DNA of 64,000 nucleotides, taken from contig JBHGNT010000022.1 in NCBI GenBank assembly GCA_043228905.1, positions 7,006,001 to 7,070,000 of the forward strand. Reading direction: 5' to 3'. The position numbers were made by a program, and so were the translations under genes. The notes beneath the pieces were generated by a model. The model saw nothing but the letters and a program-made list of their open reading frames with translations. It was not told where the DNA came from and did no database searches. Positions 11,572-58,908 of the stretch are shown one piece after another (the stretch's first letter is position 1; every line of letters starts with the position of its first letter). Origin of the DNA: Azolla caroliniana (lineage: Eukaryota > Plantae > Polypodiophyta).

Positions 11572-14500
11572 TGTCGAATACCTGTGTATAATGGACGTAT
11601 TCACACCATCCCGTTTTGGCCATTTATGTAATTAGCATAAAGGGCAGTTGCCCTAAGTCGGTCACTATATATAGTGACCTTGTAACCTCTTTGTGAGGTT
11701 GGTTGTTGTATTGTTGCTTTATGAAATAAGAAACTCTTTTGTGTCTCTCTCTCTCTCTCTCTCTCTCTGTGCAACGACCTACATTCTGTCATACACAGGG
11801 AATAAACAGGAATCGAGTGCTTCAAGATCTTCCGCACAGACGACATTGCTTCCAACATCTGGTATCAGAGCCTGCACAGTAGTCGGTCCCTCAATCCGCT
11901 GTCGGCCGTCGTCTCTGCATTCGGTTTCCTGCGTCATTCGAAGAAGAGAGAAGAAGAAGAAAAACCAGGTTTGCATCTCATCGCGTTAGATCATCTTTGT
12001 TTGGAGTAAGCCAGTAGGTTGTACTCCGCTCCCCGTGATCGTAACCGCTCGAGGTGAAATCCCCTTGTGCAACTCTGACAACAACCCAAATTCGTGCTTC
12101 ATCTGGCTGATCGACATTCGGGAGGATCAGTCGGATCCGTCTCTCTCGTCGCTGCAGTCAACCGAAGCAAAATCGGTTCAGATAATCGGTTTTAATAATC
12201 GGTATTCGGCATATATATCCGAAACGAACCAGGCTCCGACTCGGCAACATTCGGGAAGACCAGTCGGTTCTGTCCCTCAAGCTACCGAAGTCAATTCGAG
12301 CAAGTTCCGAAGCCGAACCGACTCGGGTTCAAATCTGACTAGAACGATATCGGGTGAGCCAACCGGCTGCACTCCAACAAGGTTCGTAGTCAACTTCGAA
12401 CCGAGCTTCGTCAACTGAAACCGAATTTGATGGCATCAACATCCGGCTCGTCAGAAATGAGTCTACGAAAGTTCGATGGATCGAACTTCAACTTCTGGAA
12501 GGAACAAATGCAGGACTATCTCATAGTCAAGGGGCAGATCGATCCCATCGAAAATGAAGAACCTCCAGAAGGATACAAACCAATTGAGTGGCAAAAGCTG
12601 GACAGAATCGTCCGCGCCACGATTCGGATGCACCTATCGGAATCAGTATACTTCACAGTGCAATCGTGTACGACAGCATTCGAACTGTGGAAAACACTGT
12701 CGGACACTTACGAAAAGAAGGTCGCCGCAACAAAGATGTTTCTGATCCGGCGCCTCTACAACTTGCGGATGAAAGAGTCCGATTCGGTTCAAGCACACCT
12801 CAATGAGTACGAAAGCATAAGCTCCCAAATCTCGTCACAGGGGACGGCAATCGAGGATGAACTCAGAGCAATGATACTCATGAGTAGCCTTCCCTCATCA
12901 TGGGAAACTTTCGTCACAACCGTGTGCAACGCGTCAACCACGGCTGTCAAATACTCCGAAGTCACGAGCGCAATTCTGACCGAAGCAGCTCGGAGAAAGT
13001 CTTTTGCCAAAGACTCAACAGACGACGCTTACGTAGTACAAGGTTCGACAGACCGATCGAACATACGAGGAAGAGATTCCTCACGACCGCCGAACAATCA
13101 GCGAAGACGGAGCCAGTCACGGGATAACCGAATCTGCAACTATTGCAAGAAACCCGGACACATCAAAGCCGACTGCCGCGCACTCAAGAACAAGAACAAC
13201 AAGAAGAGTGGCCGGCATGAGGAGGTCAACTACGTCAGCTTCTCAGCTGATGTGCTACCAGACGACCCGAATATACTATCAATCGAAAATCCAGTCGGAT
13301 CAGAAGTTCTACTCACGACTGAAGAGTCGAACACATGGCTCTTAGATTCGGGCGCGTCATTTCACGTGACTCCTCATCGATCCCAATTTCGGCAATATAC
13401 GATCCGTCACTCCGACTCAGTTCGAGTCGGTAACTCGCAACACTGTGACATCATCGGAATCGGCACAGTAGAGCTCAACCTTGCAGGTGGCTCAACACTT
13501 GTACTCCACAATGTCCGACATGTACCCGAGCTCTCAAGGCCATTGATCTCAGTCGGACAACTAGATGAAGACGGCATTCGTGCCGGTTTTTCTTCGGGAG
13601 GGTGGACACTCCACAGGGGGAACCTCCTGCTTGCTAGAGGACCTAAGATACACTCATTGTATCCGTTACATGTTACGCTCAGAGAGGGTAACCTGTTTTT
13701 GGTGGATATTCCTGTGTCATCACTATGGCACCGAAGATTAGGACACCTCAGCAAGGCCGGCATCACGCATCTATCCAGAGCCGGGTACATCCCCAAACTC
13801 TCCTTCTCCGACCATCAATTCTGCGAGCATTGCCAGTATGGCAAACAAGTAGCCGCATCACACCCGACATCAGCACCAAAAGAAACGAGACCTCTCGATC
13901 TAGTCCATTCGGACGTCTGTGGCCCAATGCCGAATCAGTCTCTAGGCGGTGCCTCTTACTTCGTCAGTTTTATTGACGATTCGACTCGAAAGGTGTGGGC
14001 TTATCCAATTCGCACCAAAGATCGTGTCTTCTCGATCTTCACCGATTGGCTCGCTATGGTAGAAAATCAAACCGACCGAAAGCTGAAATGCCTTCGGACC
14101 GATAATGGGGGAGAGTTCAAATCCGACGAATTCGTCAAATTCTGCCGACAACGCGGCATCCGACATGAATTTACGGCACCACACAGTCCGGAGCAAAACG
14201 GGATTGCAGAACGAATGAATCGGACAATCCAAGAAAGGATAGTTTCCATGCTCCAACACTCCGGACTGTCGGATGGCTTCTGGGCAGAGGCTCTACTCAC
14301 GGCAGTACACATAATCAATATGTCGCCAAGTAGACCTCTAGGACTTCAAATTCCTCAGGAACTATGGATCGGCAGCAAGCCGAATTACGACAAGCTGAGG
14401 ATCTTCGGATGCGAGGCGTACGCCCTTATTCCGAAAGATGATCGCCGAAAACTTGCACCTCGGTCCAGGAAATGCATTTTCCTTGGATATGGATCAGACG

Positions 14501-16921
14501 GCGAAATGGGATACCGACTCTGGGACCCCGAACGCAGACAAATCGTTCGAAGTTCGGACGTTGTGTTCAACGAGTCGGCTATGAATCCATCAGTCGAAAA
14601 ACCGATCGAAGTCCGAAGGGTAACATTCTCCGATGTGCCGACCCTTCAAGAAGGCCCCGCTCTCAACACACGGTCAGCTTCACGGGTAGCTGAACCTTAT
14701 ACTACCGACTCGGACAACTCTGACTCGGCACAGCCCGAATGATTCGGTTTCGGACCATCCGACCTCGATACCCGATGCGACCAGTCCAATCATACCTCGA
14801 CGATCCGAGAGACTGTCGCAACCTCCGGAGAGGTATTCTCCTGGAATTTTCTTCACCGACGCCGGCGAACCGACGTCTTACGAAGAAGCATCGACATCTG
14901 TCGATTCGGCCACCTGGCATCTGGCGATGGAGTCGGAAATGCACTCCATCCGTGCAAACAAGACTTGGGATCTGGTCGAATTACCTAGGAACCGACGTGC
15001 TCTTCCTTGCAAGTGGGTTTATCGACTAAAAGAGACGTCTGATTCGACCACCCCAAAGTACAAGGCCAGATTAGTTGCGAAGGGCTTCCGACAAGAATAT
15101 GGCGTCGACTTCGACGAGATTTTTTCACCAGTGGTGAAAATGACAACCCTTCGTTTTCTGCTCGGCGTCGTGGCAGCCGACAACTTGGAGCTGATTCAGC
15201 TAGATGTCAAAACAGCCTTCCTCCATGGTGATCTCGAGGAGGAAATTTATATGGAGCAGCCAAAAGGCTTCGTGGCAACTGGCCAAGAACATCTAGTCTG
15301 CCGACTCAGGAAGAGTCTATACGGCCTCAAACAGGCACCGCGACAATGGTACAAGAAGTTCGACGACTTCATCCAATCGATCGGCTTCTCCAAAAGCGAT
15401 GAGGACCATTGTCTCTTCACCAATACAGCTCAAGATGGATCACCCATCTTCCTCATCATTTACGTGGACGACATGCTAATTTTTGGACGCCACGCGGGCG
15501 AACTTGCCGATCTCGTTCGGCAACTGCAGTTGAAGTTTGCCATGGAGGACCTCGGTCCGGCACGACACATCCTTGGCATGAAGATTAGTCGGCATCGCGA
15601 TAAACGACATCTTTTTTTGTCTCAGACCGACTATATCGGACGTGTCTTGGAACGCTTCAACATGCAATCAGCCAAATCTGCTTCAACCCCACTCCCTATG
15701 AATCTTCGGCTCTCTCAGCGAGACTGCCCGACATCCGGTTCGGAGGGGGAAGATATGAAGTCGGTACCGTATGCACCGGCAGTCGGCTCCCTTATGTACC
15801 TGATGGTCGCGACACGGCTTGACATCTCTCATGCCGTAGGAGTCGTTAGCAGATTTATGCACAATCCTGGCCGATCGCATTGGAACGCAGTCAAGCATGT
15901 GTTCAGATATCTGGCTGGCACAAAAGATCACGGCATTCTTTTCGGTCCGAACCGAACCTCAGGCGTAGTCGGTTACACCGACTCGGACTTCGCCGGCTGT
16001 ATAGACAGTCGGAAATCAACAACCGGATACTGCTTCAAATTCGGCAATGGAGCAATCTCGTGGAAGTCGAAACTTCAGGAGTGCACAGCGACCTCAACGA
16101 CCGAAGCAGAATATGTAGCTGCGTCCGACGCAACAAAAGAAGCTTTGTGGCTCGGTCGGCTGGCGCACACGTTTCGACAAGTCGAACATGACTCGGCTCC
16201 AGTTGTCTACAGCGACAGTCAAGGTGCTGTTGCCTTGTCGAAAAATCCGGTTCACCACAACGCCTCCAAACATATCGATGTTCGATATCACTTCGTTCGG
16301 GACTGCGTCATTTCAGGGAAAATCGGTCTAGAGAAAATATCCACAACCGACAATGTCGCAGATGGAATGACCAAGTGTCTTTCGGCAGACCGTTTTCGGT
16401 CTCTTCGGCATCAGATGGGCGTAACGACAAACCAGTCCGGTTAGAGCCGGACACAGAGCAGGATGGTTCCCGACAACCGACATCAGTTCCTTAATGATCG
16501 GCTTCAACTGTTCCGACCCGACCAGTTCGGTCTTCTGCCTTCGGACCCTGCCGACTCGAACAAAGCTGATATGTCCGAGAACCTAAGTCTATACCTGTAA
16601 CCTTAGATAACCCATGTATACGCCCATTACGGGGGAGTGTCGAATACCTGTGTATAATGGACGTATTCACACCATCCCGTTTTGGCCATTTATGTAATTA
16701 GCATAAAGGGCAGTTGCCCTAAGTCGGTCACTATATATAGTGACCTTGTAACCTCTTTGTGAGGTTGGTTGTTGTATTGTTGCTTTATGAAATAAGAAAC
16801 TCTTTTGTGTGTGTCTCTCTCTCTCTCTCTCTGTGCAACGACCTACATTCTGTCATACACAGGGAATAAACAGGAATCGAGTGCTTCAAGATCTTCCGCA
16901 CAGACGACATTACTTCCAACA
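11572..16921 (+). mobile_element. Young full-length Ty1/copia element
   Basis: LTRs 11572-11857 and 16638-16921, nearly identical; TSD GGCTC 11567-11571/16922-16926; PBS TGGTATCAGAGC 11860-11871; PPT GGGGGAG 16631-16637. Confidence 0.96.
12430..16444 (+). CDS. gag-pol: Copia Gag-PR-INT-RT-RNase H polyprotein with one +1 frameshift near 14735
   Basis: ORFs 12427-14742 and 14927-16444: CNYCKKPGHIKADC, WLLDSGAS, LVHSDVCGP, RTDNGGEF, YVDDML, YTDSDFAG. The second frame reads open back to ~14741. Confidence 0.92.
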
Positions 16922-29083: not shown

Positions 29084-31699
29084 CCAACATGTCGATTATG
29101 CCTTTGATTATGCTCTTGTCGGCCACCACCATTGCATGCCGATCCACCTTATCCTCCATGACCAAGGGGCTGATCCGCCTCCGTATACAGCAGGGTCGAA
29201 GCATGCTACGGTGTACCAACTTTTGGCCAAAAATTTAGTACTAAATCAGGGAAGAAAATAAACATAAAAAATTGAAAATAAAACAATTAGTGCAAAAAAT
29301 AGTGGATTATCATCCATTGAATGAGGTTCAGGTTCAAATAACAAATTCAATACGAATGTACAAAGATATTATACGTCACAATCGAAATGTCCCAAGGCAG
29401 TATTTAATACATTAATTATAACTTCATTCTCCTAGGTAGAGTTGTACGAAAGCAGACCTGGAGAAGGTTTCAAATGTGTTAGTTGGTCAGTGTCTCTCTC
29501 TCTCTTTGGTATGGGTAGTTGAACGTGTCAGTTGGTCAGTCTCTCTCTCTCTCTCTCTCTCTCTCTTCTGTCTCAAAGTTTTCAGTCAGAAAATGGCAGA
29601 AAGTTAGTAATCAAAACACATATCTATTACCTATCTCTCTCTCACTCCACCTTCAATTCTCTGTTTCCCCGCGTAATTCTTGTTGTGTTCCCTCTGTGCT
29701 TGATTTTTGTTGTTGTTTCCCTACGATCTTTGAACTCTGTATATGCAGAGATTGTTGTTTCCCCTCTATGCTCGTTGTTCTTGTTGTTGATGTGCTTTCT
29801 TTCTGTATGCTCGTTTGTCTCCTCTGCAACAGCCTCGTCAACAACCTCTTGCATATAGGTGATTTTCCCAGCTTGGTGTGCTCCTAAGGTGAAGAAATCA
29901 ACACGGTGTGGTACCTTTGCCTTGACCTTGGCTCCATCTGCCTTCAACCCATCGTTCCATCTGCAACTTGCACGACCTCCAGGTATTCTCTGTGTTGCAT
30001 TTTTAGGGTTTGATAATTCATATTCTATGTGTTGCATGCCCAACTGGTATGTTTTTGTTTTCTTTGTGTTTCCTATCCGTGTGTTTGACATGGATGAGTT
30101 TTTTTCCGACTGTTTAGGGTTAAAGTGTGTTTGACATGGCTTGTAGATGCAACTTACATTGAGTTGACTATGATGATTTGCTGGTTGTTGATGGTATTTT
30201 GATGAGTTTTCTTCTTGTACATGCATATTTTGATGGTATTTTGAAGACTAGGACAATGACGAGAAGGACACCCATAAAGAAGACATTGGTGAAAGAGAAA
30301 GAGAAGACACTAGTGAAGGAAAGAAAAAGCAAGAAGACACCCACAAGAGAAAGGGTGATGAACTCATCAACTCAGAGAAAGAAGATGTGCCACTCCATCA
30401 TTCGAGACACACCTCTCGGATGGAGTTATTTCCTTCGAGCACGACCTGAAGTTTATGAAGAGCTGAGAGAGTGGTTGATAAAAACCTGGGGGTCACCACA
30501 TCCCGATACAAGGCAAGGATTCCACATAAGTGGATTGAAGAAGGAATATGTGAACTTATTGAAGACAAGATATGAACATGTTTATGATAGTAATCAAATT
30601 TGTAACAATGAGGTGGGTATTGTTTTTGCACGTGCATTTGCTTGTGAAGTTTAGGGTGGCATCGACGTAGATTGGGAAGATTTTAATCGTCACCGATCAG
30701 AACATTATAAAGGGTCCTCTAGTACCAACACTGGCTTGAAGTCATCGGGAACCTCTCATGTGGATATTCCGGCTACAACACTTGTCCACCAAGTTCAATT
30801 TGCAAAGCTACAGGCCACAATGACTGAAAAGCATGAATGGATGATGGCCGGTTGCATAGCTTCTATGAGCTCAAGAATACAAACACTACTTGCTGATTTG
30901 GAAGTAGTTAAATCAGCTGAGATATAGGTAGAAAAGAAATTCTCTTCAATAAAGATTACATATGAATGGATTGCATCGACAATCCAAAATTCAGAAAATG
31001 AGGTGTTGAAAGAGGAGTTGAAGAAAGAGTTGAACAATATGGGCACTCAATTAGGATCACAAATGAGAGACCTTGATACTTGCAGAATTTCACATTGTGA
31101 ACTAGATAATAAGTGGACAACTTTAAAGTTGCATTCTGAGAACCTTGCGTGCTTGATGTAGGATTTAAAACGAAAAGGTTTTGAAACTTTGTGTCCATAT
31201 GTAATTGAGCACCCAAGTGGTATGGAAAGTACCATTACTAGTATAGCTATATCACGGTATTTGCTTTAAAAGTTATTTATTTCTACTTCTGTGGTATAAA
31301 TATCATATTAGCTAATATATTGTAACTTGTGTTTGCAATCTGCCAGGTGTATATTTTGTGGCCTCGGATTCTAGCTTGAGGCTATGGATGTTGTGATTAC
31401 ACCGTGCTTGCACACATATCATATGCTATGTGCTAAGTATCATTTTGAGAAAGAGAATACATGCATGGACTGTAAAACTACAGTTGCTGTTGAGTGGTAC
31501 TATGCTTGGGGTTTAAAAGTACACCTGTACGGTATGTGGCTGTACTATTCTATTGTTTGTACTATATTATGTCAATTTACATTTGGATTAGAACTAGTGA
31601 ACGCCACAATTCAAACTTCAAATTTAGGAAAACAATGGATTAGTACTAGTGTAGCTCCAACAACTAATATGTGGAACCCTATTTATGTGGGTTAGTATT

Positions 31700-32640
31700 G
31701 GCAGTACTCTTAATATATAATTGGTATGGGTAGTTGAATGGATATTTTGCAGAATTAGTACTATTTGAGTAATTCGGGAACCAGGTGTGACATTGTTCGG
31801 GATTGGTACTAGTTATGTAGTTTGAGCACAAGGTATGTAGTACATTGTGAACGATTAGTAATAAACCTGTAATTTAGGAATTAGGAGTGTAGAACACATA
31901 TCATGATTAGTACTACTTGGATGCAAAATACCAATTTAATACTAAAGAAGGAAGTTGTTTAGATGTATTTGTTGAATAAGTTGTTCGTCCAATCTATATT
32001 ACAACTTGCCTAGTGCTAGTTTAGTACACACTATACTTGTAGTACATTGTTGACTATTAGTACTATTTGTGTAATTTGGGAATTAGTTGTGTAGTACATT
32101 GTTCACGATTAGTACTAGTTATGTAATTTGGGAACAAGGTGTATGGTAAATTGTTGAAGATTAGTACAGTTTGTGTAATTTGGAAACGAGGTGTGTCAAA
32201 CACATATCAAGTTTAGTACTAATATTGTTGAAGATTAATACTGTTGGTGTAATTAGTACTAGTTATGTAATTAGGTGTGTAGAACACATATCATGTTTAG
32301 TATTACTTGTGTGCAAAATATCATGTTAGTACTAAAGTCCAATCTACATTTGTTGGATTAGATGCTAGTCCAATCTATATTACAATGTGCCTAGTACTAG
32401 TGTTAGTACACACTATACTTGTAGTACATTGTTGACGATTAGTACTACTTGTGTAATTTCGGAACTGAGTAGTACATTGTTGACGATTAGTACTAGTTGT
32501 GTAATTTGGGAACTAAGTGAGTAGTACATTGTTCATGATTAGTATTAGTTGTGTAATTTGGGAACTAAGTGAGTAATAAATTGTTCACGATTAGTACTAG
32601 ATGTGTAATATGGGAACTAGGTGTAGCCTAATGATTTAGT
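31700..32640. repeat. Degenerate tandem array rich in TAGTACT/AGTACA (presumed intron of the accessory gene)
   Basis: Recurring GATTAGTACTAGTTGTGTAATTTGGGAAC..GTAGTACATTGTT units of ~50-57 bp. Confidence 0.85.
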
Positions 32641-33759
32641 AATGCAGTTCTTGTGACCTACATTGTATTTTTTATATCACGGTACTAATGTTGAAGGTTT
32701 TTTTGTTTCTTGCAATGAATGTTGTAGTGTCAAGCAACTCCACGCCAAGGAAAGTAATGGAACAACCAGCCCCTGTGCCTAAACCCTCAGTATCTGCTGC
32801 ACATTCCAAGGTTCAGGGACCATCATTACCAGTAACCTATGAGTTTTATGATGAAGATGAACGTATGAGAAGGGCCATTGGAGCAGTGGAACATATGCTT
32901 CTACAAACAAATTCCCCAAGCTCCAGTCAACATCAAAACAATCCAGGTAACACAAATTCAGTTAGCATATCTTAATTCTCAGTTGTGTGTATGTTGAATG
33001 CCTAATGTCTTTAAAAAAGAGCCCACTAAGAAGAGGAATGTTGCAAGAAAGTTGTATGGAAAGGGCAAGAAAGGCAGAGTTGAATGCAATGGTGAGTCAT
33101 ATATGTTCTCACCTGTCCGGAGAGTTGTCAACCTAATGCATTGTCTAATACCATGTATTTGTGTTACTAGCTGATGACGAAATGATCTTTGGTGAGGGAG
33201 ATACGAGTCCAAAACCTGATCATGAAGACGAATTTATCACACTCCCAGGTACACGTCAAAAGCCCTCTAAGAAAACAATGATTTAGATCATAACTACCCT
33301 ATTATAGTGGTGCTTTTGGTGCATTCTATAGATACTATTATGAAATCTTCTATTGACAATGAGCTCCAACCTGTTGAACACTTAGATGTTGTGGACAAGA
33401 TGACCGAATCTACCACTTGCAATGGGTTGTCTACGGCTATACATTATGACGATGTAACAATAGGTAAAAATGTGGCTATTAACCTTATGTTCATTGTTGT
33501 TGGTATGTTTGCAAAATTTTGAGTATGTGAGTTGATACTAATATTCTCTGGAATCCCATTATTTAGGTTTACAAGTGCAGTTTGATTCCCAACTGCAATC
33601 AAATGAATCGGGAACTATATGGAGCACAAGTGCAAAGTCAGATTCTGGGATTAACCTTTGCACGGAGGCAGACTCTGGGAGCACATCTTCCACACATGAG
33701 GAATGTGAAAAAAAGGAAGCGTTCTTATTTGAAGAGCAGCTGGCATGTACAAACAACAA

Positions 33760-34100
33760 TTTGTCTAAAGAATCCCATGAGGAGTGTGGAAAGAATAATG
33801 CTAGTACTGAAGAGGAGCCTAATTGTACCGAGAATGTGCTAGTAGTGTCTAAAGAATCCCATGAGGAGTGTGAAAAGAATATCGCTAGTACTGAAGAGGA
33901 GCCTGATTGTACCGAGAATGTGCTAGTAGTTTCTATAGAAGCCCATGAGGAGTGTGGAAAGAATATAGCTAGTAATGAAGAGGAGCCTGATTGTATTGAG
34001 AATGTTCTAGTAGTGTCTATAGAAGCCCATGAGGAGTGTGGAAATAATATAGAAGCCCATGAAGAGGAGCCTGATTGTACTAAGAACGAGCATACTAGCA
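33760..34100 (+). repeat. 84-bp (28-aa) coding tandem repeat, about 4 copies
   Basis: SKESHEECGKNNASTEEEPNCTENVLVV-type unit repeated in ORF 33575-34225. Confidence 0.9.
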
Positions 34101-34559
34101 TCACCCATGAGGACCAGGCAATAAAGACCACCCAAGAAGGGCGGCATGGTGGTCTTAAGAATGAGGTGACTATCACCAACAGGAGCTTAATTGTACTGAG
34201 AATGAGCATACTAGCAACAACATGAGTACTAAAACAACCCACATACATGAGATGAGTGATAATTTGACTATCAACAGTACCTTTGTGGATGTGTGTACAA
34301 GCATTGCAATTGCAGAAAACACAGTTTCTCTCTCAAGCTTGCCACTGGTACAAGGTGCCCGTACATCCACACCTGTCTCTGATGCCTCTGATGATGAAGT
34401 GCCACTTAGTACACTGATACCTAAAGGCTTTAAGATAAAGAAGAATGTAAAATCACAAAAAACTGGCACCAATAACAAGTGCATTACAAGATTGGGGAAA
34501 TTGTGAAATGGTGCCTGATTGTCTTTCGATTGTACTTCAACTATAGCTGAACTGTTAGT

Positions 34560-34990
34560 GATGTCTGAACTTGAACTATTTGGTATACCAAAATACTGTC
34601 TAAATTGCTAATGTGAAATGTTGTACTGACTCCAGTTCACTCATCTAGTGTTGTTAACGTAATGTGAAAGTCTATATTGCCAATTGCAGAGAATGAGAAT
34701 GTATTCTATTGTTAATTGTCATGCAACCATGATTGTGTTGAACTGCAACTGAATTGTTACCAGCGTACTGTCTAAATTGCCCCTGTGAAATGTTGTGAAG
34801 ATCAGACCAACCATCTAGTGTTGTAGTGTAATGTGAAATTCTATATTGCTAATTGTAGAGAATGAGATTTTATTCTATTGTCAATTGTCATGCAACCATG
34901 ATTGTGTTGATTACAAATAAAATTCTATATTGCTAATTGTAGAGAATAAGATTTTATTCTATTGTCAATTTGTCATGCAACCATGAATGT
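34560..34990. repeat. Local tandem duplications between the convergent 3' ends
   Basis: CTATATTGC.AATTG.AGAGAAT.AGA.T.TATTCTATTGT..ATTGTCATGCAACCATGA occurs three times. Confidence 0.8.
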
Positions 34991-35472
34991 AGTATGGAAC
35001 ACTTTGACATTCACATTCGTACATAAAATAAGATGTATGTATCCGTCTAACTGAGATACTTCGGGAGACTACTATGTATTAGTGAACACTTACAATTGAC
35101 ATTAGTACTAAACTAATATGTATATTGATACTTGCAAAGTATGGTCTCCTTGAGTGCACATAGTCAGAGTCGAATAGAGACTTAACACAATAGGGATTAG
35201 ACTACTGGTATTGATAGTTGAATAAGTTTGGGCCATATTGATGCTGCTAAGTATTGAAGACTTCACACCCTAAACCATAGAAACAAGCAACTCTATATTT
35301 ACCATGAACACTTACAAAACAAGCTCAATAAATACTCTAAACACTTTAGAAGAAAGACGAAATATATCGATTCATTTGTCAATCATCAAAATTAATATAT
35401 CAATATATCAAATAGTGAACTACAAGCGGATATTTTTCAGTTGCCAACTATAATGTATTAATAGGGTAACTT

Positions 35473-38400
35473 TCAAGCATTAAACAGAGAGACCTCCCCT
35501 AATATGTGCTCATGAACCTCTTGGGGGACCTTGTAGACAATGTTGTATCCCTTAACCTTGTGCTTTTCTTGAGTCATATTGAACTTGATCGCAAGAATGG
35601 CAGCAGTGTAGATTATTGTGATGGGTGCATCTTTTAGTAATGCATATATGTGTTCTTGCATTGCAGCAACTTTGCATAATAGTTTCCATACACGACAGAC
35701 TCACCAACGTTGAACATGTTGCCCCAGCCATCCGTCACCACTTCTTTCGATAATGTCTTTCCTTGCTTGCACACCACAATATAGTAGCCTTCTAAATCTT
35801 CATTTTGAGGAGATTTGAGCACCGCAAAATTATCTCAAACTTCCAATAAAACTACCAAGTCTTGATGTTGGTTGTAGTATACAATATCGTTTGAATGTGC
35901 ATCCTCTTCAATATCATCTTGTCGTTCAAGCTCGAGCTTCTGCAACTTCTAGGGCTCCACGATTGATAGGTTGATGCATTTTTCCCAAGCTTCGTCTATA
36001 CACATGGAACAAAAGCATGATAAAGTACAGAGTAACAATTGTGTTGTGTCCTTGCGGCTAAAAACTAATACACAATGGGTGCTTTGTGTGCCTTTCACGG
36101 TTTTACAACCATATGATTTAGTTCTATCGACCTCATTAGTGCGAACCTCAACAAACAATCTATTCTTACCATCATTTGACATCTTCCATGTTAGCCACTC
36201 CACAACATCATGTGCATTTTGTAACTTAGCACCATTATTATCCAACTGCTCACTTGTAAGGGCACGTTTGATCATAGCCCCCGAGCCATCATGCTCTCCT
36301 TTTCCATGTCCAGACCCGAAGTAGTTCCATTGCATACGAATGTTGAATAAGGAGAAGTATCTGCTTTTGTATCCCAGGTTTCCAACAAACATTAGTACTA
36401 TGTTGTCAATTGAGAGTACTATACATCCATTAATATTGATTTAGTACAAATACAAAACAAAGCATAGCACAACGTATCCATGGAGAACACTATACACTAA
36501 TTAAATGATAAATAGTACTATGTTGTCAACCATCTGTACTTAGCATCCATTAACGGATACAACACAAAGCATAGTACAATGTGTTCATGCAAAACACTCT
36601 ACATGTATTAAAAGATAATTAGTACAAACTGTTCAATATTGGACAGTACTATGTTATTGACGATGAGTACTTTACATCCATTAATACTGATTTAGTACAG
36701 ATAAAACACATAGTATAGTACAATGTGTCCATGGAGAACACAACATGGATTAGATAATTAGTACAAACTCTTCAATATAGGATAGTACTATCAGTACAAG
36801 ACATGTACTTTACATCCTTCAATAAATACTGATTTAGTACAGATACAACACATAGTACAATACAGTGTGTCCATGGAGAACACTCAACATGGATTAAAAG
36901 ATAATTAGTACTAACTCTTAAGGACGGACAATACTATGAGTACAAGAAGACTATGAGTACAAGACGAGTACTTTACATCCTTCAATAAATACTGATTTAG
37001 TACAGATACAACACACAATACAATACAATGTGTCCATGGAGAGCACTCAACATGGACTAAAAGATACTTAGTACAAACTCTTAAGAATGGCCAATATTAT
37101 GAGTACAAGATGAGTACTTTACATCCTTCAATAAATACTGATTTAGTACAGATATAACACACAACACAGTACAATGTGTCTATGGAGAACACTTCACATG
37201 GATTAAAAGATAATAAACACAGATCCACGTGACATGATGGTACTATGTGATCAATCAAGAACACTTAACATAGTTACAAACATAATTAGTATGCATGCAT
37301 CCATTTGAATAGTACTGTGTTTGAATAGTTACAAACATAATTAGTATGCATGCACTAACACAAGATTTACTTCCTTAGACATTGCATTATAAGTACTAAA
37401 CATATGGATTAAAAATTACCTGGCGATAAAGTAGAACGATCGTGTTGCCTTAAACTGCAAGGCAACACCATCAGACCAAACCCAATGACGGTTAAAGGTA
37501 AACCCTAGAGACAATAAATATGCATGGTGAAGCTTAAAACAATGTTGAACAAATAGTGTATCATGCTTTTTATCATCTGAAATGTAAAATATTGATTTCT
37601 TATGTAACTCACCGTCTTGTCTCCAATAGCAAATATGTACAAGTATTGTACATTGATCATTGTACCAATGCATTCATTGAACCTCATTTTGAATTTTAAA
37701 TGTATAGTTTTCTGCAAAGTCAATAATAGATACGATGACACCCGTGGGTAAGTTATTAATACATTCCTTGAACTGTGAATTTTGCCAATAACTCCGGAAG
37801 TTATGTGGAATGAACTCCCCAAGTTGTTTCTTAAATTCTAAGACAAGGGTAGCAACACATGTCTCCTTATATACTTCCTTGATACGCTTAGTTACAAGTC
37901 CCTGGCCAATATTTTCAGTCACATACTCTAAATATTTCCATTTCACAACATGACTGTTTCCCAAATCAAGCTCCTGCCTACAAAATAATGGTAGCGGACA
38001 AACCTTACATGTTCTTAAAAGACATGTATGATGATGCCACTCACATGATGGTTCTTTTTCACAAACACAAGACCTCCATAACTCAGAAACGAATGCATAA
38101 GTCATGTTTCGTGCATTACACCTATTATCCTCCCCATTCGGTCTACAAACCTCACAAGTGCAGACACATAATTGCCCGTGTATACCCTTAGAATCGGTAC
38201 GCATTGCATTCACTCCAAGCCTTAACATGTCCAACTTCACATGGTACACACAACAACATGTATTCCTCTCATTTAATTTTCTAACATAATATGGTTTCAA
38301 ACCTTGGAACTTGCGGAATCCAACAGTCAAGCTTGGATGTTGGTCTTTAAAGTTCATGTACAATTCAGCCTACATCAACCAATATATATAGCAAACATTA

Positions 38401-39082
38401 ATATACACTTGGTCAAAACAAAAATTTATGGAATGTGAATTGATATAAAAAAATGGAATACCTCCATCATCTCCAAGAAGTGTCTAGGGTGAATCTGGTA
38501 CTTACCCTGACTTATTCGTTTTCTACACACGTCCTTCTTATTTGGCGAGACACGCGTATTTTTTGCCCAAAATGGATCCACTTTCTCAATATTCTCTTGA
38601 GATAAGACATCACATCGTCGTCTACGTCCCAACCCCAGTCACTTGAATTGGCTTGAGTGTATATTTTGGCGATGTTTCCTCAAGTTCCTTCTTTGAATAC
38701 CCAGGGCTAAGGCAACTTTAGTATCACTATATTTTTTTTCTCTCACACCGTTCACAACCATGTGTAGGGCTGCCCTCTTTGCAGCAAGTTAGTCTATGCT
38801 CTCTACACCTTTCACTAAGTCTAGGGATGACTTCATAGACTCTACAATCTCTTCTGAAACACATTGGTTCCTAAATTTTATTCTCCCCATGTCTTCATTC
38901 AAACGTTGATGGTGTAACACTCTACATATAATATCCCTACGATCCCCAAATCTCTTTGTTATTTCTACCAAATAACGGACTATGTGAAGAACCACTCGTC
39001 TCTTGGTCCTTTCCGATATACATGAGTTACTTGACAACTCACTCTCGTTGGGGATCCCCATTTGGTCACTAGATTTATCCAA
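35473..39082 (-). pseudogene. Intron-containing DDD transposase (Sola2-like) with stops and frameshifts
   Basis: Triad SIIDFAENY / WSDG..QFK / GSGHGKGEHDG; Cys-rich CCCVYH upstream and SCFCSMC downstream; frame-preserving GT-AG introns 38370-38461 and 36361-37419. Confidence 0.85.
36400..37350. repeat. AGTACT/AGTACA-rich tandem array filling the transposase intron
   Basis: Repeated GAGTACTTTACATCC..ATACTGATTTAGTACAGATACAACAC..TGTGTCCATGGAGAACAC units of ~130-160 bp. Confidence 0.85.
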
Positions 39083-39300
39083 AAAAATTAAGTGTCTTGC
39101 GAGAGTAGTTAATGTTATATAGACTACACTAAGAAATCACAATAAAATGTTTTTAAATGCGGCCTACAAAGTGAGAAATAATTAATTTCGGACATTAGAA
39201 TTACGAATCAAAGATGACAATTAGCATTTCTTTATTCACAAATTTCTAAAAATGAAAAAATTTAGAACTGAAAATGAAAAAATAGTTTTGAAATTTAGTA

Positions 39301-39640
39301 CTAGAAAGGAACCTCCAATGGTGGAGGGAGCGTTGTATCTGTGTGATATGCCGCCTCGATTTGGTGGAAGGAACCTCCAATGGTGGAGGGAGCGTTAAAT
39401 ATGTGTGATATGCCGCCTCGATTTGGTGGAATGAGCCTCCAATGGTGGAAGGAGCCTTGAATTTGTGTGATATGTCGCCTCGATTTGTTGGAAGGAACCT
39501 CCAATGGTGGAGGGAGCATTAAATCTGTGTGATCTGCTACCTCGATTTTGTGGAATGAACCTCCAATGGTGGAGGGAGCCTTGAATCTGTGTGATATGTC
39601 GCCTCGATTCAGTGGAAGGATCCTCGCCTTGGTGGAAAAA
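39301..39640. repeat. ~62-bp tandem repeat, about 5.5 copies, upstream of the transposase ORF
   Basis: GGAAGGAACCTCCAATGGTGGAGGGAGC..TGTGTGATATGCCGCCTCGATTTGGT units. Confidence 0.9.
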
Positions 39641-40384
39641 GCCTCAAATCACCATGAGATAAACTGCAATCAGTGGAAGAAGCAAGAAAATCGTTCTCGA
39701 AGATGTCACTATTGGCTGTTATAAGAGGCCTCAGAACAGTCTCTAATCCTCAACTCAAACCCTAAAACAGAAACCCTAACAAAACAAGAAATCCTCAACC
39801 CAAAACCAGAAACCTGACATGGATGTTTGAGATATGCTCCCTGAACCCTAACAAACCTCTTACATTGGAGGCAAACCAAAAACTTGACATGGATGTCTGA
39901 GATGAAGAGCTCAGAGGGATAGAGGAAGAGGAGTAAGAGGAGTTGGTTTGAGGGGAAGCGCCAAAAATGATGTGAGGGTAAAATAGCCCCCAAAATGGAA
40001 AGAACATCTCCTCACTTGTTCCCCCCACTCTTTGTCTTAAATGACACTTGTACTACACTCATCCCACTCCCCAAAATCGATTTTTTTTCTCAATTATTTA
40101 GTACTAACAGTATTGAAAGGACTGACATTTTTTGTGGCCAAAAATAGTACTTTTCTGGTACACCGTAGCGTGCTTCCACCTAGCATCTGATTGTCTGATT
40201 GTGTGCTCCTTGACACATTAGCGTGGTTCTCTTCGACCATAAGCATTGACTGTAGGTCGAAAAACGACAATGGCTTCTTCCTTGTACAGATAACCATCTA
40301 GATCAGCCCGTACCTCTAAGCTAGACCACTGAGGCAAATCTATACCATCTCGTCCTCATCCACAGTCACGTTGATAGGGCAAGT

Positions 40385-41910: not shown

Positions 41911-43962
41911 CTAGTCGATTGTACCATAGAAGTCTAAAGTATTAGTTGTAATCGAAAGTGTTGTTTTGGGTCAAATATAGTGTAACAGGTGTCAATACGT
42001 AAGTCGAAAGACTAAAAATATAGTAGTTGGAAATAGAATAGTCGAAAAGACAGAGTAGGAAGGTAGAACCATTTTTATGTTTCTTGCAGAATGGTAGTTT
42101 TGTAGTTCTTGATGAGTTTGCTTGTCTCACCTATATAAAGGGATACGGGACATTGTAAAAGGATTGATTTGTAAGTATAAAATTTTAGTTTAGAGTACTC
42201 TGAGTTTCTATTTTTATGTTGTTCTGTGTGTTGTACGACTAGAGAGAGGGAGAGAGAGTATTTCTATATGCACAATCGATCATAAATTAAGTGGGGCTAT
42301 GTTTAAAATCACATTTGTGAGTAATTATGATAAAAGAGTGTTTAGAGATAAAAAATATTAGAGAGTCACAAGTAATTAGAATGGAGTTGAAAATAAAGAA
42401 CTGGCACCCATCAAATCCATATCTCCCACCATAATTCCCTTGATAAAGCGACTTAGAGAGTAAGTTGTTCAACCCTTTATGTTTGTCGACCAAGAAGAAG
42501 GTGATAACACAAAATTTTAGCACTCCCGGTTACATCTGTTAGAAATAGAGAACAACAAAGAATGCAAGCCGCCTAGTCAACCTAGTACATAACAACTTGT
42601 AGGAAGTAGATGACCACACATGAGATCGAAAAGCCGACGTGCGGAAGAAGACAATTGAATCGACTAATTTGGAGTTTTTCAAGCGTATTCAGTAGGACGT
42701 TGAAGAGGAATTAAGGGTAATTCTCGATTTACAGAACGATAGTAGTTCGGATGAGGAGATGTCAGACCAACATCTACAATTAATCGACTTAGTAGGAGTT
42801 TCCATGGAGGATACAATGTTGTATCCTTACCTCAAATATAATGATAAAGTAGATGCACATGCACATGTGCGCACTTTCCTCACGACATGGCAAGCTAACC
42901 ATGTCTCACAAAGACTATCAGAATTAGATGTTAATAAATCCAAGATAGCTGAATTTAGATTGTCATTACAAGGGCAATCAATTAATTGGTACTCGCAACA
43001 TGAAGAGAGTGAGTTTGAATCATTTAAACAATTAACCGACAAATTTGTCAAATTATTTCACTGTCAGGTCACAAAAAGGGAACTTATGAGCCAATTTTAT
43101 GTTGCTTATCAAGAAGCTCATGAAATGTTGCCATAGTTTATTATTCGATTTAAAAATCTTCTGAGGCAACTAGCACGACAACTTCCCGAGGATGACTTGA
43201 AAGATACCTTTTTAACAACTCTCTGAGAACCACTTCAGACAACTTTAATTATTTTGGATTTCAAGGATGAGTCATTAGAGCAAATGATTGATAAGGCACT
43301 CTTCATGGATAGAGCACAAACAAGTAATAGTATGTCGATGGCGTCCTTACAAAGATCATTACCAAATCAGGAAGAATTGTTGTTCTGACAAATTAGCAAT
43401 TCAATGCACGACTTGCTTGAATCTTGGGCATCCCATAGTAGAATGCATACTACACACACATTGCCCAATTTTCCATTCCAAGGCACACACAATCGACAGT
43501 GTGAATATAATCTCTTAAACAAGGTCACAACTCTAGTAAGGAAAATAGAGCCACATGACGACTGAACAAGTGACAGGATCTAGCACACAAATCATTTCTG
43601 GGAAGACGATAGACCAAGTTACGAGGATCGGTTTCGATCAGATCAAAATCGACGAGATGATTACAGAAGGGACAAGCACCAAGATGATTATAGAAGGAAC
43701 GAAGATCACCAAGAGGATTACAGAAGGGACAACCGTCATCAATATGGATGAGATTATTCACCTCGTTATGATTGAAACAACCAGCGTTCATATAATAACA
43801 GAGGATCAAGACACTAGGATGATGGACGGTATTATGACCCACGAAGGAATGAAGAAAATCGGCAAACTAATCGCCAATTCCCAGCAAATGATGAAAGGCA
43901 GGATGACAATAGACGACCCAAGTTGTCACGATAGTTTCAGTATAACCTTCAGGTCTAGGAAG

Positions 43963-46900
43963 TATTAGAATATAAGTTAAATAATATTATTAATAATAAA
44001 TATAATATAACTGCCCTCCCGGTGATAACACCAAGAAAGGTTTCTAACTGCCTTATATTGCTATAAATAGGTCTCTAGGACCTATAGTTGTAATAGGACG
44101 ATTTCAATACAGATTTACTTTACTTTACTTTCTCCCTCTCTCTCTCTCTCTGTCTCTCTCTCTCTTGCCTCTTCTCTTTTCATCTCTTCTCAACATGGTA
44201 TTAGAGCGTTAGGCTCTCTCCAACCACCGTCCTCTTTCCTTTCTTTCTTCACAGCCAGTGCTCTTGCCACCACCGTCCTCTTCCCTTTCTTCCTTCACAG
44301 CCAGTGCTCTTACCATTAGTTGATCCGGACAACTATGGCACAACATGCACATGGCACACCTAATTCGTCCATATCGACACCCAGCCCATCAACCCCAATA
44401 TCGGGTTTTTCAACAACGCAAGGCACCACTCCGCTCGTCCCAACCACTACGAGAAGTTACAACCTCGACAAACTCACGGGCCCCAACTACCTTACATGGG
44501 CCACACGGATGACATTGATGCTCAAACGAGCGGACTTGTGGAACGTGGTAAGTGGCACAACCCAACCCACCGAAACCAATTACACCGAGTGGACGGCAAA
44601 AGATCTCCAAGCCCAAACCGAACTCATGTTCCACCTTGGAGACCCGCAAGTGCAAATGGTCCGACGTTGCGACACCTCAGCGGAAATTTGGAAAGTACTC
44701 CGAAGCACTTATCATCATGAAGATTTGATCACCCAAGTCGCATCACTCAAAAAGCTCCTAATTTCCTCCGTCACAGAAAACCAAGAAATCACCAAATTTC
44801 TTGATGAATGGCGCATCTTACTCGACAATGCCCTCCTCTCGGGACTACAATTAGATTCAAATCTACAAGCAATGTTACTCCTAGCAGCATTGCCCTCCTC
44901 TTGGCAACCATTTATAACCACTCAAGCATCAATGACGGGCCTCACCGTCGAATCTCTTATGGCACGCATCCGCCAAGAAGAGATCATGCGAAATGGCGCT
45001 CATCACTCAAATGCAACATTTTCAAGACCGTCGACACAATATGTGCAAAGACAACCTAACTTCAAAAGGGGACCTCCCTTTCGAAGGAACAACAACAACA
45101 TGCGACCCGCCACCGCTTCAACAAAAGTTTGCACATATTGTGGACGCCATGGACATCTTGAACGTGACTGCCGCACCAAGCGTCGTGAACAACTGAACCA
45201 ATCACAACAACAACGTCAACAGCCACATGGACGACATCCTAGAGCACACCTCCAACAACTAAATGTGCCCGAAGTTGGCCAATATGGTATGGAATCATTA
45301 CAACTATTTACATCATTACTAAATAGTTCCAATTGTCTTTCCCACACCACAGATATATCCGAATGGCTACTCGACACTGGTGCAACTCACCACATGACGC
45401 CACAAAAGCATTGGCTCCGCGACTACAAACACCTCTCAAGTACCATGCGGGTTTACCTCGGGAACAACCAATTCCTCACTGCCATCGGTGTCGGGAACCT
45501 TCACATCACCCTACCAAGTGGAGTAAACGTCAACATCTACAATGTATATCACATTCCGGGTCTTAGCCGAAATATACTTTCGGTTACAACGGCTACCTCA
45601 ACTGGATCTTCCATTGAGTTCTTCCATGACTCATGTATTATTCACTTCAAGCTCCCTAATGGACAATTTGAAATTATAAAAATACCTCAGAAGGACCGTT
45701 TGTATCCATTAGCTATATCTATGTCTAATCCTCACTCTGTAATTGGTCACACCTCTATCCATTCTCTTCACATGGCTAAAGCCGTGTCCACCCTTATGTG
45801 GCATTATAGGTTCGGTCACATAAATAGTGTCACACTACATCGCATGGTGAAAGATAAGCTTTGTGTTGGCTTACCACTCTATCTAAACCCAATAGAATTG
45901 TGTGAAGGTTGCATCTTAGGAAAATCTAGCCACAAAAGTCACCAAACATCACTCAACAAATCCACACAATTGAACCAACTAGTACATAGTGACCTTTGTG
46001 GACCCATGGAATCAAGCTCACTCACGGGCTCCCATTATTTTCTCACTTTCATTGATGATTTTAGCAGGTATACAACCATATACTTCCTCAAGAAAAAGTC
46101 TGAAGTGCTCACACACTTCAAAGAGCATTGCAACCTCGTAGTCCGTCAACATGATCTTCCAATCCAAGCACTTCGCTCCGACAATGGCGGAGAATATGGC
46201 TCAAATGCATTTGAGGCATTTTGTAAAGATGGGGGCATCCAACAACAATTTACCGTTCCATACACGCCACAACAAAATGGTGTGTCCGAACGGAAGAATC
46301 GAACCCTTGTTGGCGCTGCTAGAGCCATGCTCCTTACGGCAGGACTACCAAAAACCTATTGGGAAGAGGCGGTCGCGACAGCATGCTATGTCCAAAATCG
46401 GGTTCCGCATGCAAACGACCCCAAAACTACACCATTTTTTCACTGGTTTGGCAAGCCACCCAATGTTCAACATCTTCGAATCTTTGGATGTGTAGCATAC
46501 CCGGTGAAAGCTTTGGACTTGAGAAAGAAGTTGGATCCAACAAGCACGCGAATGATCTTCGTGGGCTATGGTGACCGATTTGGCGTCAAAGCATACAAAT
46601 TGTATGATCCGGAGCAACGAAAATTTCACCTCGCACACTCAGTATACTTCAATGAAACCTCTCTCCTTAGCCCCCAACAAGAAATCCACAACCCCATAAC
46701 ACCATTAACCCTACCATCCACCACACCAACCATTCCACTCTCTACCCAAAATAGACACACTCAAGTTCAATGGGAAGAAGTCTCACAACTCGCCCCACTC
46801 CCACCACAAACTCTCACTCCAATTGTCCCAACAACCACAATACCACCAACGTTACATGCCCCCCCCACACCTACAACACCAAAAACCCCTCCTTGGTCCC

Positions 46901-49083
46901 TCGGACAGAAAACCAAATCCCTCCTATTCCCTATGCCTACAAATTCATCATTCCCAGGTAGTGAACCCCTCCACTCACAAACAACCAAACCCTAGTAGAC
47001 CACTACATACAATTATACCAATAGAATCTACCTATCAACCTTCTATCCTAGGACCAATCCCCAAGGCTTGTGCTCCCAAACCTTCGAAAGTCCGATCTTT
47101 GAAGGAGATCTACGAACAAACAAACCTCACTTCTAGTATATTAGAAAAGCATCCATCACTAGACTCCACTATATTTGATCCCTTAGATATATTATATCAA
47201 CAAATGATCCAAGATCCATCCACCGATCGTGATCTTCAATTACTAAATCTTGAATCTTTTGATGATGTCAATATACAGGAAGCACTCTCAGGAACTGAAG
47301 CCACCTCATGGCGTGAAGCCATGGCCTCGGAGTACCAATCTCTCATGGAGAATGGTACATGGCAACTAGTACCACAACCGCCGGATCGAAAATTGGTATC
47401 ATGCAAATGGCTACTCCGAAAGAAGTTTAATGCGGATGGCTCGATCTCGCGCTACAAAGCTCGACTTGTAGCGCGAGGATTTTCACAATTACCCGGTATG
47501 GACTACAACGAGACTTTTTCTCCCGTCCTCCGGATGACCTCATTCCGAGCATTACTCGCCACTGCCGCACAACTTCATCTCCTCATCCATCAAATGGATG
47601 TTCGAACAGCATTTCTACATGGAAACCTACATGAAGAGATCTACATGGAGCAACCACCCGGTTATATATCTCAAGATTACCCAAACTATGTATGTAAATT
47701 AAACAAATCACTATACAGCCTAAAACAATCCCCACGACAATGGTATGAAAGATTTAGCTCATGTATGTCAAACCTAGGATATGTTCGTTTTCAATCCGAC
47801 CCTAACGTATATAGCCGAAATGGCCCTAATGTAATACTCCTCCTAGCCATTTATGTAGATGATATCCTCATCCTATCCAACTCTGAAAACACACTATGTA
47901 AAGCAAAGAGTGAACTCCATGCATCATTCTCGATGCAAGATATGGGAGCCCTCCATTATTGCCTAAGTATCCAAGTTATTCAAGATCCCTCCCAAGGCAT
48001 CATCCAAATAAACCAAAAATCCTACATTGAGTCACTCCTTAAGAAGTACAACATGTCCAAATGTAAAGGTATCGCAACTCCCCTACCAATCTCCCTTAAA
48101 ACAAAAACATCAACCTCATCAATGACTCAAACATCGGATATGGTGGTGTTTCCATATGCCAACATCCTTGGTGGAATTAGATACCTCGTCACATGTACAA
48201 GACCCGACATATGCTTTGCGGCTAACTTCTTATCTCGTTACATGCAGGCACCAAGTCCAATTCACACCCAACACTTGAAGCGCCTGTTAAGGTACCTTCA
48301 AGAAACTAAGGACTTCGGCATCACCTACTCGGCATGTCAACCATTACCGACACCATACCTAACTTGCTACTCGGATGCCGATTGGGGGGGTGATGAAGAC
48401 ATATTACAATCGACATCAGGCTACATCTACCTCCTATCAAATGGTGCCATTTCATGGCAGAGCAAAAGGCAACAAAGAGTCACACTCTCATCAATGGAAG
48501 CAGAATATGTAGCAATGACATTGACACTTAAAGAAGGAATTTGGCTAAAAGACTTCTTGAAGGAAACAACTCTATTCCCCGATCATCCACTTCTCCTTCA
48601 ATGTGATAACATGTCAGCCATCATGCTCGCAAAAAATCTCAAACATTCCGAGCTAACAAAGCACATTGCCATGAAGCTACAATTTACAAGGGAACTACTA
48701 CATGAAGGCAATATTCAAATAAGTCATGTGCGCACCGAACAACAATGGGCAGACTTCTTAACGAAGTCCACACAAAAATCAAAACATTACGAAAGTTGTA
48801 ATAAACTAGGATTAAAAGCTACTTAGTTAATATTATCTAACTTAGGGGGGTGTATTAGAATATAAGTTAAATAATATTATTATTAATAAATATAATATAA
48901 CTGCCCTCCCGGTGATAATACCAAGAAAGGTTTCTAACTGCCTTATATGGCTATAAATAGGTCTCTAGGACCTATAGTTGTAATAGGACGATTTCAATAC
49001 AGATTTACTTTACTTTACTTTCTCCCTCTCTCTCTCTCTGTCTCTCTCTCTCTTGCCTCTTCTCTTTTCATCTCTTCTCAACA
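43963..49083 (+). mobile_element. Young full-length Ty1/copia element with TA..CA LTR termini
   Basis: LTRs 43963-44195 and 48853-49083; TSD GGAAG 43958-43962/49084-49088; PBS TGGTATTAGAGC 44196-44207; PPT AGGGGGG 48844-48850. Confidence 0.95.
44335..48826 (+). CDS. gag-pol: Copia polyprotein with one frameshift in the Pro/Thr-rich INT-RT linker
   Basis: Overlapping ORFs 44320-46995 and 46823-48826: CTYCGRHGHLERDC, WLLDTGAT, LVHSDLCGP, RSDNGGEY, YVDDIL, YSDADWGG. Confidence 0.92.
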
Positions 49084-57643: not shown

Positions 57644-58508
57644 ACGTGTCTAGTTTGTTGGTTGATAGCACCTTGGTCAGCATGTCTGACCCGTTCTCCT
57701 CCGTGTGGATCTTTGTCAGAACAAAGTCTTTGTCTTCTAGCTTCTCCCGAAACCATTGGTATCTTCGTTGGATGTGCTTGGTCCGGGAATGGTAGTCTGT
57801 GTTCTTTGCAAGGTGGATGGCACTTTGATTGTCACAATAGAGCCGGTCTTCCTATTGGATCCCTAGCTTTCCGACGAAGACCTTCATCAAGATTACCTCT
57901 TTCCCGGCTTCCACGGCCGCCATGTACTCCGCTTCCATCATCGATAGTGCTACAAATTTCTATAGCCTCAACTACCACGATACAGCTCCCCCGGCAAAGA
58001 TCATGACGTATCCGGATGTGGATCGGTTGGTATCTACATCAGCTGACATGTCTGAATCTGTGAACCCTTTCAATAGGGATTTACCAGAGCTGAATCAAAG
58101 GCACATGCTCGACGTGCCTTTCAGCTACCGGAGGATCCACTTAATGGCGGCCCAATGCTCTCTTCCCGAATTACTTATGAACCGGCTAACCAGTCCGACT
58201 GCATATCTGATGTCCGGCCGGGTAGACACCATTGCGTACATCAAGCTTCCGACAGCAGAGGCATATGGTTGCTTCATCATCTCTAACTTCTCTGTCTTTA
58301 TCTTCGGTCTTTGTTTTCCGGACAACTTCTTGTTTGCCGGAAGTGTTGACCCGACCGGCTTCGTGTCCGTCATGTTGAACCATTGGACCACCTTCATCAC
58401 GTACTTGTCTTGAGACAGCCCTAATAGCTTCTTCGTCCAGCCCTAGACTATGTGCATCCCGAGTATCTGTCTTGCCGGACCCAAATCTTTCATTGAGAAG
58501 GACCGGTT

Positions 58509-58876
58509 TGTTGGGATTACGGTCTCTCCGGATGGGATGGTCAGATGTCCGGGAATCGGGAATGAAGACCCGAATGATGAAGACCCGGTTTTCGGATCCG
58601 GATGATGAAGACCCCGGCTACGGAGCCGGATGACGAAGACCCGGTTTCGGATCCGGATGATGAAGACCCCGGCTACGGAGCCGGATGACGAATGTACCCG
58701 GAGAGAGATCCGGATGCGGGGACATATTTGTGAATATGTTTGCCAAGGGCCCTCGAGGCTATATTTGTAAATAGCCCGAAAGTCATATGTGTATAAATAT
58801 GACTTAGGGCAAACAGTTTGTTTGTTGTTGCTCATTTTTCTGTTTTCCACTTAGAGGGAGCGAAGTGAGAGCAGCC

Positions 58877-58908
<32 letters not shown>

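Follow-up and report, generated by a model that had tools for sequence, protein, structure and literature searches.

The question raised by this locus is what a second gene, convergent with the transposase gene and carrying a RING-H2 finger, does in a Sola2-type DNA transposon. The element lies at 29193..40181 (~11 kb) of a 64,000-nt stretch of the fern Azolla caroliniana (assembly GCA_043228905.1, contig JBHGNT010000022.1, positions 7,006,001 to 7,070,000 of the forward strand), which as a whole is called the window. An earlier note on this DNA had proposed a dedicated two-gene transposon, and related copies agree with it: in a metagenome scan the second (accessory) gene was found at 25 loci rather than in this copy only, a common terminal inverted repeat (TIR) stands at 4 unrelated sites, and linkage to the transposase is seen in 3 contigs. 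Across copies the ratio of nonsynonymous to synonymous substitution rates (dN/dS) is ~0.3, as the note's own check for values below 1 had anticipated, and the gene is under purifying selection. In addition, the element has 20 copies of the palindrome TAGTACTA, where 0.29 would be expected, with 0 copies in exons and 0 in the remaining 53 kb. Judged from these sequences, there is about an even chance that the second gene, conserved across subfamilies, encodes a self-addressed anti-silencing factor that would read TAGTACTA, its RING recruiting ubiquitination.

Structure of the element and its two genes

The TIRs claimed by the earlier note were located at 29193-29218 and 40156-40181; they are 26 bp long and identical at 23/26 positions between ends. 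The claimed AGCA target-site duplication (TSD) is present on both sides, and one contig of run X19 (depth 2.7) represents the empty site, joining 29188 to 40182 with 4 letters that fit either side. Since this contig has a single AGCA, the TSD is set at 4 bp. The left end starts with GGG at 4/5 ends and with AGG at locus L005, AGG being likewise found at the window's right end. Bao et al. are said to have given 5'-GRG termini for Sola2 in 2009. The TIR length is inside the 11-1124 bp range reported for Sola. No further copy of the 25-bp TIR core was found in the window at <=6 mismatches, and neither gene is present in any of five viral matches to this core.

The insertion is downstream of a minus-strand Ty3 RNase H (PF17917), in a host element that has decayed. 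Removal of the transposon was said to restore the host frame, and it does give a continuous frame downstream of the RNase H, in which an integrase zinc-binding region is recognised by eye. However, the host identity of the rejoined region was not confirmed by Pfam, which did not recognise it, or by blastp, which gave no match to another Ty3 integrase of the window, and the restored host frame is only plausible. Contigs from three DNA runs (two samples) cover 30/30 bins with 6,209-10,493 records, most of them <99% alike; part of these records belongs to the flanking retroelement and they are no copy count, and they indicate many diverged copies. Coverage of 30/30 bins was seen in runs X1, X2, X5 and X17. 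The window copy is dead, as both genes carry stops: the accessory gene has four over exons 1-2 and a frameshift in exon 7, and the transposase gene has at least 5 plus a frameshift. The features are as follows, with splice sites of accessory exons 3 to 6 taken from alignment with the related loci L003, L008 and L009.

29189..29192: left TSD, AGCA (single in the empty-site contig)
29193..29218, plus strand: left TIR, 26 bp, starting with GGG; shared end in L005, L006, L008 and L013
29236..29243: subterminal TAGTACTA; its AGTACT core has a conserved position in each of the four related left ends
30256..31256, plus strand: accessory exon 1, with a basic N-terminal stretch, a ~100-aa globular domain (~30424-30723) and a coiled coil (~30826-31191); three in-frame TAG
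31347..31531, plus strand: accessory exon 2, encoding the RING-H2 (C3H2C3) finger (31348-31473); a single TAG
31532..32727: accessory intron 2, 52-bp tandem units with 12 exact TAGTACTA and 20 at <=1 mismatch
32728..32946, plus strand: accessory exon 3
33020..33091, plus strand: accessory exon 4, basic and by eye like a nuclear localisation signal
33171..33248, plus strand: accessory exon 5
33332..33463, plus strand: accessory exon 6
33567..34506, plus strand: accessory exon 7, an acidic tail with 84-bp repeats, then an SDDExPLS motif and a basic C-terminus; frameshifted
35473..36360, minus strand: transposase exon 3, where the third catalytic Asp (36290) is encoded; interrupted by stops and a frameshift
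36361..37419: transposase intron 2, 146-163-bp tandem units with 4 exact TAGTACTA and 16 at <=1 mismatch
37420..38369, minus strand: transposase exon 2, with a Cys-rich region, DFAENY (37721) and WSDG (37472); one TGA
38462..39061, minus strand: transposase exon 1, from the first in-frame ATG, a provisional 5' end; two stops
39296..39649: region 5' of the transposase gene, in which a single TAGTACTA precedes tandem repeats of 62 bp
40099..40106: right subterminal TAGTACTA
40156..40181, minus strand: right TIR, with a terminal base unlike that of the left end
40182..40185: right TSD, AGCA (empty-site contig)

The minus-strand transposase gene is spliced as claimed, with three exons, two GT..AG introns (38461-38370 and 37419-36361) and the DDD aspartates at 37721 (DFAENY), 37472 (WSDG) and 36290 (EHDG). 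By eye, the protein matches the published Sola2 alignment (PMC3627910 Additional file 10) motif by motif; the earlier label of the element as Sola2-like fits this, and its assignment as Sola2-type is supported by the motif match. A Pfam scan of the window transposase matched no models, and the lack of a Sola model in Pfam is remarked in PMC5751038. A search for longer relatives gave 31 proteins, with named ones from Klebsormidium, Ceratodon and Calypogeia, and in a quick tree of plant and algal relatives only, the window transposase is on a long branch among plant relatives. Loci M758_1G230800 and M758_1G187400 of Ceratodon purpureus encode Sola2-type transposases (P0170-P0175, with several annotated isoforms). 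Two contigs of metagenome-assembled genomes also have such sequences: L026:836-1509 is part of a plant-type Sola2 transposase, broken and flanked by bacterial genes in a Bacteroidales contig, probably a chimera or contamination, and L027:2-1672 is an open frame of 556 aa that encodes a Sola-like DDD core on a delta-proteobacterial contig, likely a eukaryotic contig in the bin. The RING gene is absent from both.

The accessory gene on the plus strand has seven exons with GT..AG borders and ~880 codons, according to alignment with L003, L008 and L009. This alignment bears out the spliced gene of the earlier note, with its unclassified N-terminal domain, coiled coil (two long helices are predicted in this region) and RING, and the acidic repeat tail considered probable there is joined to the rest via four further small exons leading to exon 7. 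Intron 1 (31257-31346) is GT..AG, and its junction is supported by comparison, as the Adiantum model P0008 reads SIEW-CVFC. We surveyed this intron in the window and in 11 of the 12 loci reaching the RING exon, with L024 omitted for its degenerate splice sites. It is GT..AG in 10/12, and in 9/12 it has a length not divisible by three, so the RING would be readable only after splicing. An X19 joint at 29967-30240, near a possible intron of the 5' untranslated region, has reported ends that are not GT..AG and is a weak hint.

The finger has the spacing claimed, C-x2-C-x15-C-x-H-x2-H-x2-C-x10-C-x2-C, at 31348-31473. All eight zinc ligands are retained in 8/10 loci with a full RING exon, and a distant relative (P0076) passes the Pfam model zf-RING_11 (27.3 vs 27). 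RING-H2 domains are usually E3 ubiquitin ligases. A SUMO-targeted ubiquitin ligase was considered and rejected: matches like a SUMO-interacting motif number 3, 0, 0 and 1 in the window, L003, L008 and L009, respectively, and the three in the window stem from a single tandem repeat.

The accessory gene across the family

Eight loci have >1.3 kb upstream of the accessory gene. In four of them (L005, L006, L008 and L013) a common left TIR precedes the ATG by 1234-1424 bp, the flanks being unrelated, and neither there nor in the window were termini or a TSD of the gene's own seen, which the earlier note had regarded as a possible sign of a separate insertion. The transposase is downstream and convergent in 3/25 loci. 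The sole locus extending >4.5 kb downstream, L003, reaches the transposase without deletion; it belongs to a subfamily B that is 73% identical to the window over exons 1-2. For these exons, dN/dS between the window and subfamily B is 0.30-0.34 (dS 0.7-0.8; upper limits <=0.47), and among diverged subfamily B contigs it is 0.23-0.34. The RING exon, with 0.11-0.18, is the most constrained part of the gene. Values for the transposase, 0.16 and 0.28 over short overlaps, are close to those of the accessory gene. For very close contig pairs (dS<0.04) the ratio is uninformative and is as high as 1.83 in the coil.

Some loci are rearranged. Deletion derivatives at L002:3124 and L011:4261 join RING intron 2 (~window 32500) to transposase exon 3 (35782); they have AA as intron 1 acceptor and altered RING ligands, yet 12-14 exact TAGTACTA are retained. 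The gene fragments L011:2238 and L016:399, with 86% and 75% likeness to the window, both start at window 30561, directly after an AG microsatellite. At L001:438-1582 a MYB-type gene adjoins element sequence at a short repeat, possibly as an assembly chimera.

The only named close relatives of the accessory gene are five dispersed, partial models of Adiantum nelumboides, and no named host gene is among the close protein matches. A profile search returned 93 matches, some of them intronless with the same domain order. The order in distant relatives is the N-domain (FARA...G..V(N/D)W..F), coiled coil, P-x-P linker, RING and W...WG, and their N-domain aligns with that of the fern family by HHalign at 96.9% (E=2e-10). 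One distant relative is named, from the liverwort Riccia sorocarpa, and most others are from assembly contigs. When a profile was used to look for still more distant relatives, nothing beyond its first sequence came back. Of the fetched proteins, 0/209 match both the RING-family and transposase profiles, and in no species are named proteins of both genes present. One distant member, P0161, has a second RING of C3HC4 type in its tail. The near-identical distant proteins P0163, P0167 and P0168 are on contigs whose lengths, 12,289-12,313 bp, would fit a whole element.

The N-domain fold is predicted with a pLDDT of 86. Foldseek gave no match at E<=0.001 in the PDB or viral libraries, which is not proof of a new fold; the best VIA match is weak (Z 3.3, root-mean-square deviation 4.6, 65 aligned), and a fold search with a 340-aa model gave coiled-coil noise only. 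In the ESM Atlas, low-score leads for the N-domain were ATHILA ORF1 and Transposase_32 (0.76-0.77), and the exon-1 protein had no usable match. As regards homology to VANC or MAIN, there was no Pfam match of that kind and fold searches were unclear, VANC21 perhaps not being among the chains compared.

The TAGTACTA arrays and the possible role of the accessory protein

The top-ranked 8-mer palindrome of the element is TAGTACTA, whose arrays the earlier note had missed. Its copies are placed mainly in introns, with 12 in accessory intron 2 and 4 in transposase intron 2, and the others occur singly: one near each TIR, one between the two genes and one upstream of the transposase. The motif core is 44 bp inside the left end at all five left ends seen. 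In subfamily B, intron 2 has different units, of 186-227 bp, with 11-15 near-matches per kb. Taking the window RING intron, the window transposase intron and the subfamily-B RING intron as three arrays, there are 11-17 near-matches per kb and no blastn similarity among the repeats; near-match density exceeds all 100 Markov resamples in each of five introns. The form YAGTACTR occurs 24 times in the element and 1 time outside, 16 times in L003, 8 in L009 and 13 in L008, and 0 times in three flanks. The presence of one word in three unrelated repeat units points to selection for a putative binding site, and the arrays would favour a VANC-like, self-addressed mechanism.

Such a mechanism may be outlined as follows. 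The transposase cuts at the TIRs and leaves 4-bp duplications, as established for Sola. The accessory protein would likely enter the nucleus and be dimerised by its coiled coil, which fits a palindrome. The N-domain would then likely bind TAGTACTA arrayed in the introns and beside both ends, so that the accessory protein rather than the transposase may be the reader of the motif. The RING would work as an E3 ligase whose targets are chromatin or silencing proteins, or would at the least be a zinc-binding module for partner contacts, and the resulting anti-silencing would keep family copies active. The earlier note had guessed similarly that the accessory protein may ubiquitinate host silencing factors or regulate the transposase. 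A wider proposal, which we regard as tentative and short of an even chance, is that fern Sola2 elements have a ubiquitination-based anti-silencing system in which an unclassified, predicted DNA-binding domain reads TAGTACTA arrays of three separate origins and delivers a RING ligase against silencing proteins, and that the family, reaching liverworts, would represent a widespread counter-defence of seed-free plants.

Several observations weigh against the anti-silencing reading. The 25 loci are from one assembly series, and the high-coverage ones are probably collapsed repeats. The TIR was not found at the other 4 of the 8 loci with long upstream sequence (truncated or fragmentary), and no second full-length element was recovered. 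Exons 3-5 are under weaker constraint, with dN/dS of 0.38-0.72 and some intervals reaching 1. A spliced 31256/31347 joint was not seen in runs X19, X20 and X22, and one X19 contig is unspliced across intron 1. Tandem expansion inflates the motif counts; although tandem growth accounts for the number of motifs, it does not account for their sharing among arrays. The window RING matches Pfam zf-RING_2 with E=5.6e-5 and 23.8 bits, under the 27.3 cut-off, and the RINGs of L003 and L007, with 19.9 bits, are also below it. Sequence matches in the PDB to the family profile (RNF165/Arkadia, RNF24 and RNF126; E ~5e-5 to 3e-4) have the same C3H2C3 pattern. The usual E2-contact residues of a RING are a hydrophobic residue, a Trp and a Pro. 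In the comparison with the RNF165 RING the hydrophobic residue is kept, whereas the Trp of the helix and the Pro that precedes the final Cys pair are replaced in the fern family, with His and Met/Leu in fern copies; unlike these proteins, the fern family also has a W-x3-WG-like motif after the finger. Replacement of Trp and Pro would lower, and not exclude, ligase activity, and from its sequence the RING is perhaps marginally more likely than not to have the predicted ubiquitin ligase function.

The motif also adjoins both TIRs, so the transposase could be its reader, and this position bears on two other explanations. According to the first, which we consider somewhat unlikely, the accessory protein is mainly a transposition cofactor, comparable to TnpA of CACTA or the Myb/SANT protein of Harbinger elements: bound to the motif beside the TIRs, it would aid the assembly, targeting or turnover of the transpososome, and its RING would control how much transposase is present. 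The fixed distance of the motif core from all five left ends, its presence near the right end, the coiled coil and the basic patches are in line with this, and TnpA-TnpD complexes are modelled in PMC13547354. However, 16/20 exact copies are in two internal introns distant from the ends, and in the passage of PMC10741241 consulted, Sola superfamily elements are said to encode a DDD transposase and no obligatory partner is mentioned. According to the second explanation, which seems quite unlikely, the transposase or a host factor reads the motif and the accessory protein has a separate role, its RING being a structural or interaction module only. While the non-canonical E2 surface and the lack of a named function for the N-domain in domain and fold searches would fit, and according to a preprint (bioRxiv 10.64898/2026.08.24.746577) a MuDR transposase needs no helper to bind its cognate copies and activate them, it is difficult to reconcile with the strong constraint on the RING exon, with internal intron arrays that fit the VANC pattern and with the domain order retained in distant relatives.

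One-off capture of a host gene, carried neutrally, is very improbable and largely refuted: RING-H2 genes are common in plants, and the one distant named relative, from Riccia sorocarpa, may or may not lie in a transposon, but the divergence between two subfamilies at dN/dS ~0.3, together with TIR and transposase linkage at several loci, makes neutral capture unlikely, and the nearest named relatives are the dispersed Adiantum models, without a named host gene among close matches. That the RING gene is a separate non-autonomous element nested in a Sola2 copy is hardly credible either, since the gene fragments without TIR at L001, L011, L017 and L020 are outweighed by the same distance from TIR to gene at four unrelated sites, by the convergent linkage that recurs in subfamily B and by a motif common to introns of both genes.

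The window around the transposon is a nest of long terminal repeat (LTR) retroelements. A young copia-type element at 58506-63947 has LTRs (58506-59173 and 63286-63947) that are 98.8% identical and an unbroken open reading frame of 1368 aa (59172-63275). Two other copia-type elements, at 11572-16921 and 43962-49083, have LTR pairs that are 98.3% and 97.9% identical, respectively, and long pieces of open reading frames.

Comparison with known systems

The earlier note knew of no RING in Sola elements. The literature searched for a RING gene in Sola or other DNA transposons, PMC5751038 and PMC9289625 included, is likewise without one, but the note had missed the published Sola second genes encoding Fanzor1 and a ParB-methyltransferase. 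Second genes in Sola are therefore already published, and a separate RING-H2 gene with self-motif arrays, not found in the literature searched, appears new, although Repbase, the original Sola paper or the supplements of PMC12477816 and PMC13547354 could list one. Most of what is understood of sequence-specific anti-silencing by transposon genes concerns VANC in Arabidopsis, and the consulted text of PMC5735166 leaves open by what means it takes away silent marks. The element described here is a candidate in another superfamily and plant lineage, and with its proposed target word and putative catalytic module it allows direct tests of binding and ligase activity. If the anti-silencing reading is true, it would help to explain how DNA transposons persist in fern genomes that are large and heavily methylated, and would yield a DNA-addressed E3 ligase that looks programmable.

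A RING in a mobile-element context has precedents in the N-terminus of RAG1 and an anemone RAG1-like protein (PMC1131882, where E3 activity is cited for RAG1) and in the retroelement protein of Burro/GYPSM1 (PMC6431247). In those cases the RING is part of a recombinase or polyprotein, whereas in the window it is in a separate convergent gene. Among Sola elements, the large Sola1-1_Ec32 of Ectocarpus (PMC12477816) has an opposite-strand ParB-methyltransferase gene proposed to bind and modify its own sequence, which is a similar arrangement; the window element differs in its Sola2-type transposase and in its RING-H2 and unclassified domain, for which no ParB or methyltransferase match was reported. 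Closer in the transposase are the Sola2-Fanzor1 elements DFa and PPa of Dictyostelium and Polysphondylium (PMC3627910), with short TIRs, a 4-bp TSD and a second gene. The shared Sola2 core is DFAENY...Q(D/N)E(I/V)Q..HW...ISDD..HD...SDG..QY/FK...HGK..DG, with an upstream Cys cluster and a G(T)RS.H motif. In contrast to these elements, the second gene of the window is a spliced RING/coiled-coil gene and not Fanzor1, the TSD is AGCA and not AWWT, the host is a fern, and there are internal palindrome arrays.

In the layout of its motif, the element resembles the VANDAL (MuDR) elements with their VANC anti-silencing proteins. According to PMC5735166, the YAGTATTAY arrays to which VANC21 binds are spread over introns, intergenic DNA and the terminal regions of VANDAL21; in both systems a short motif is amplified in noncoding tandem repeats, and the accessory gene has a variable, repeat-rich part. 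The palindrome TAGTACTA differs at one position from the first eight bases of the VANC21 motif, and the true VANC21 motif occurs only 1 time in the element. The differences are that the window element belongs to another superfamily and has a RING, that no VANC or PMD/MAIN sequence match was found, and that binding and demethylation are only predicted here.

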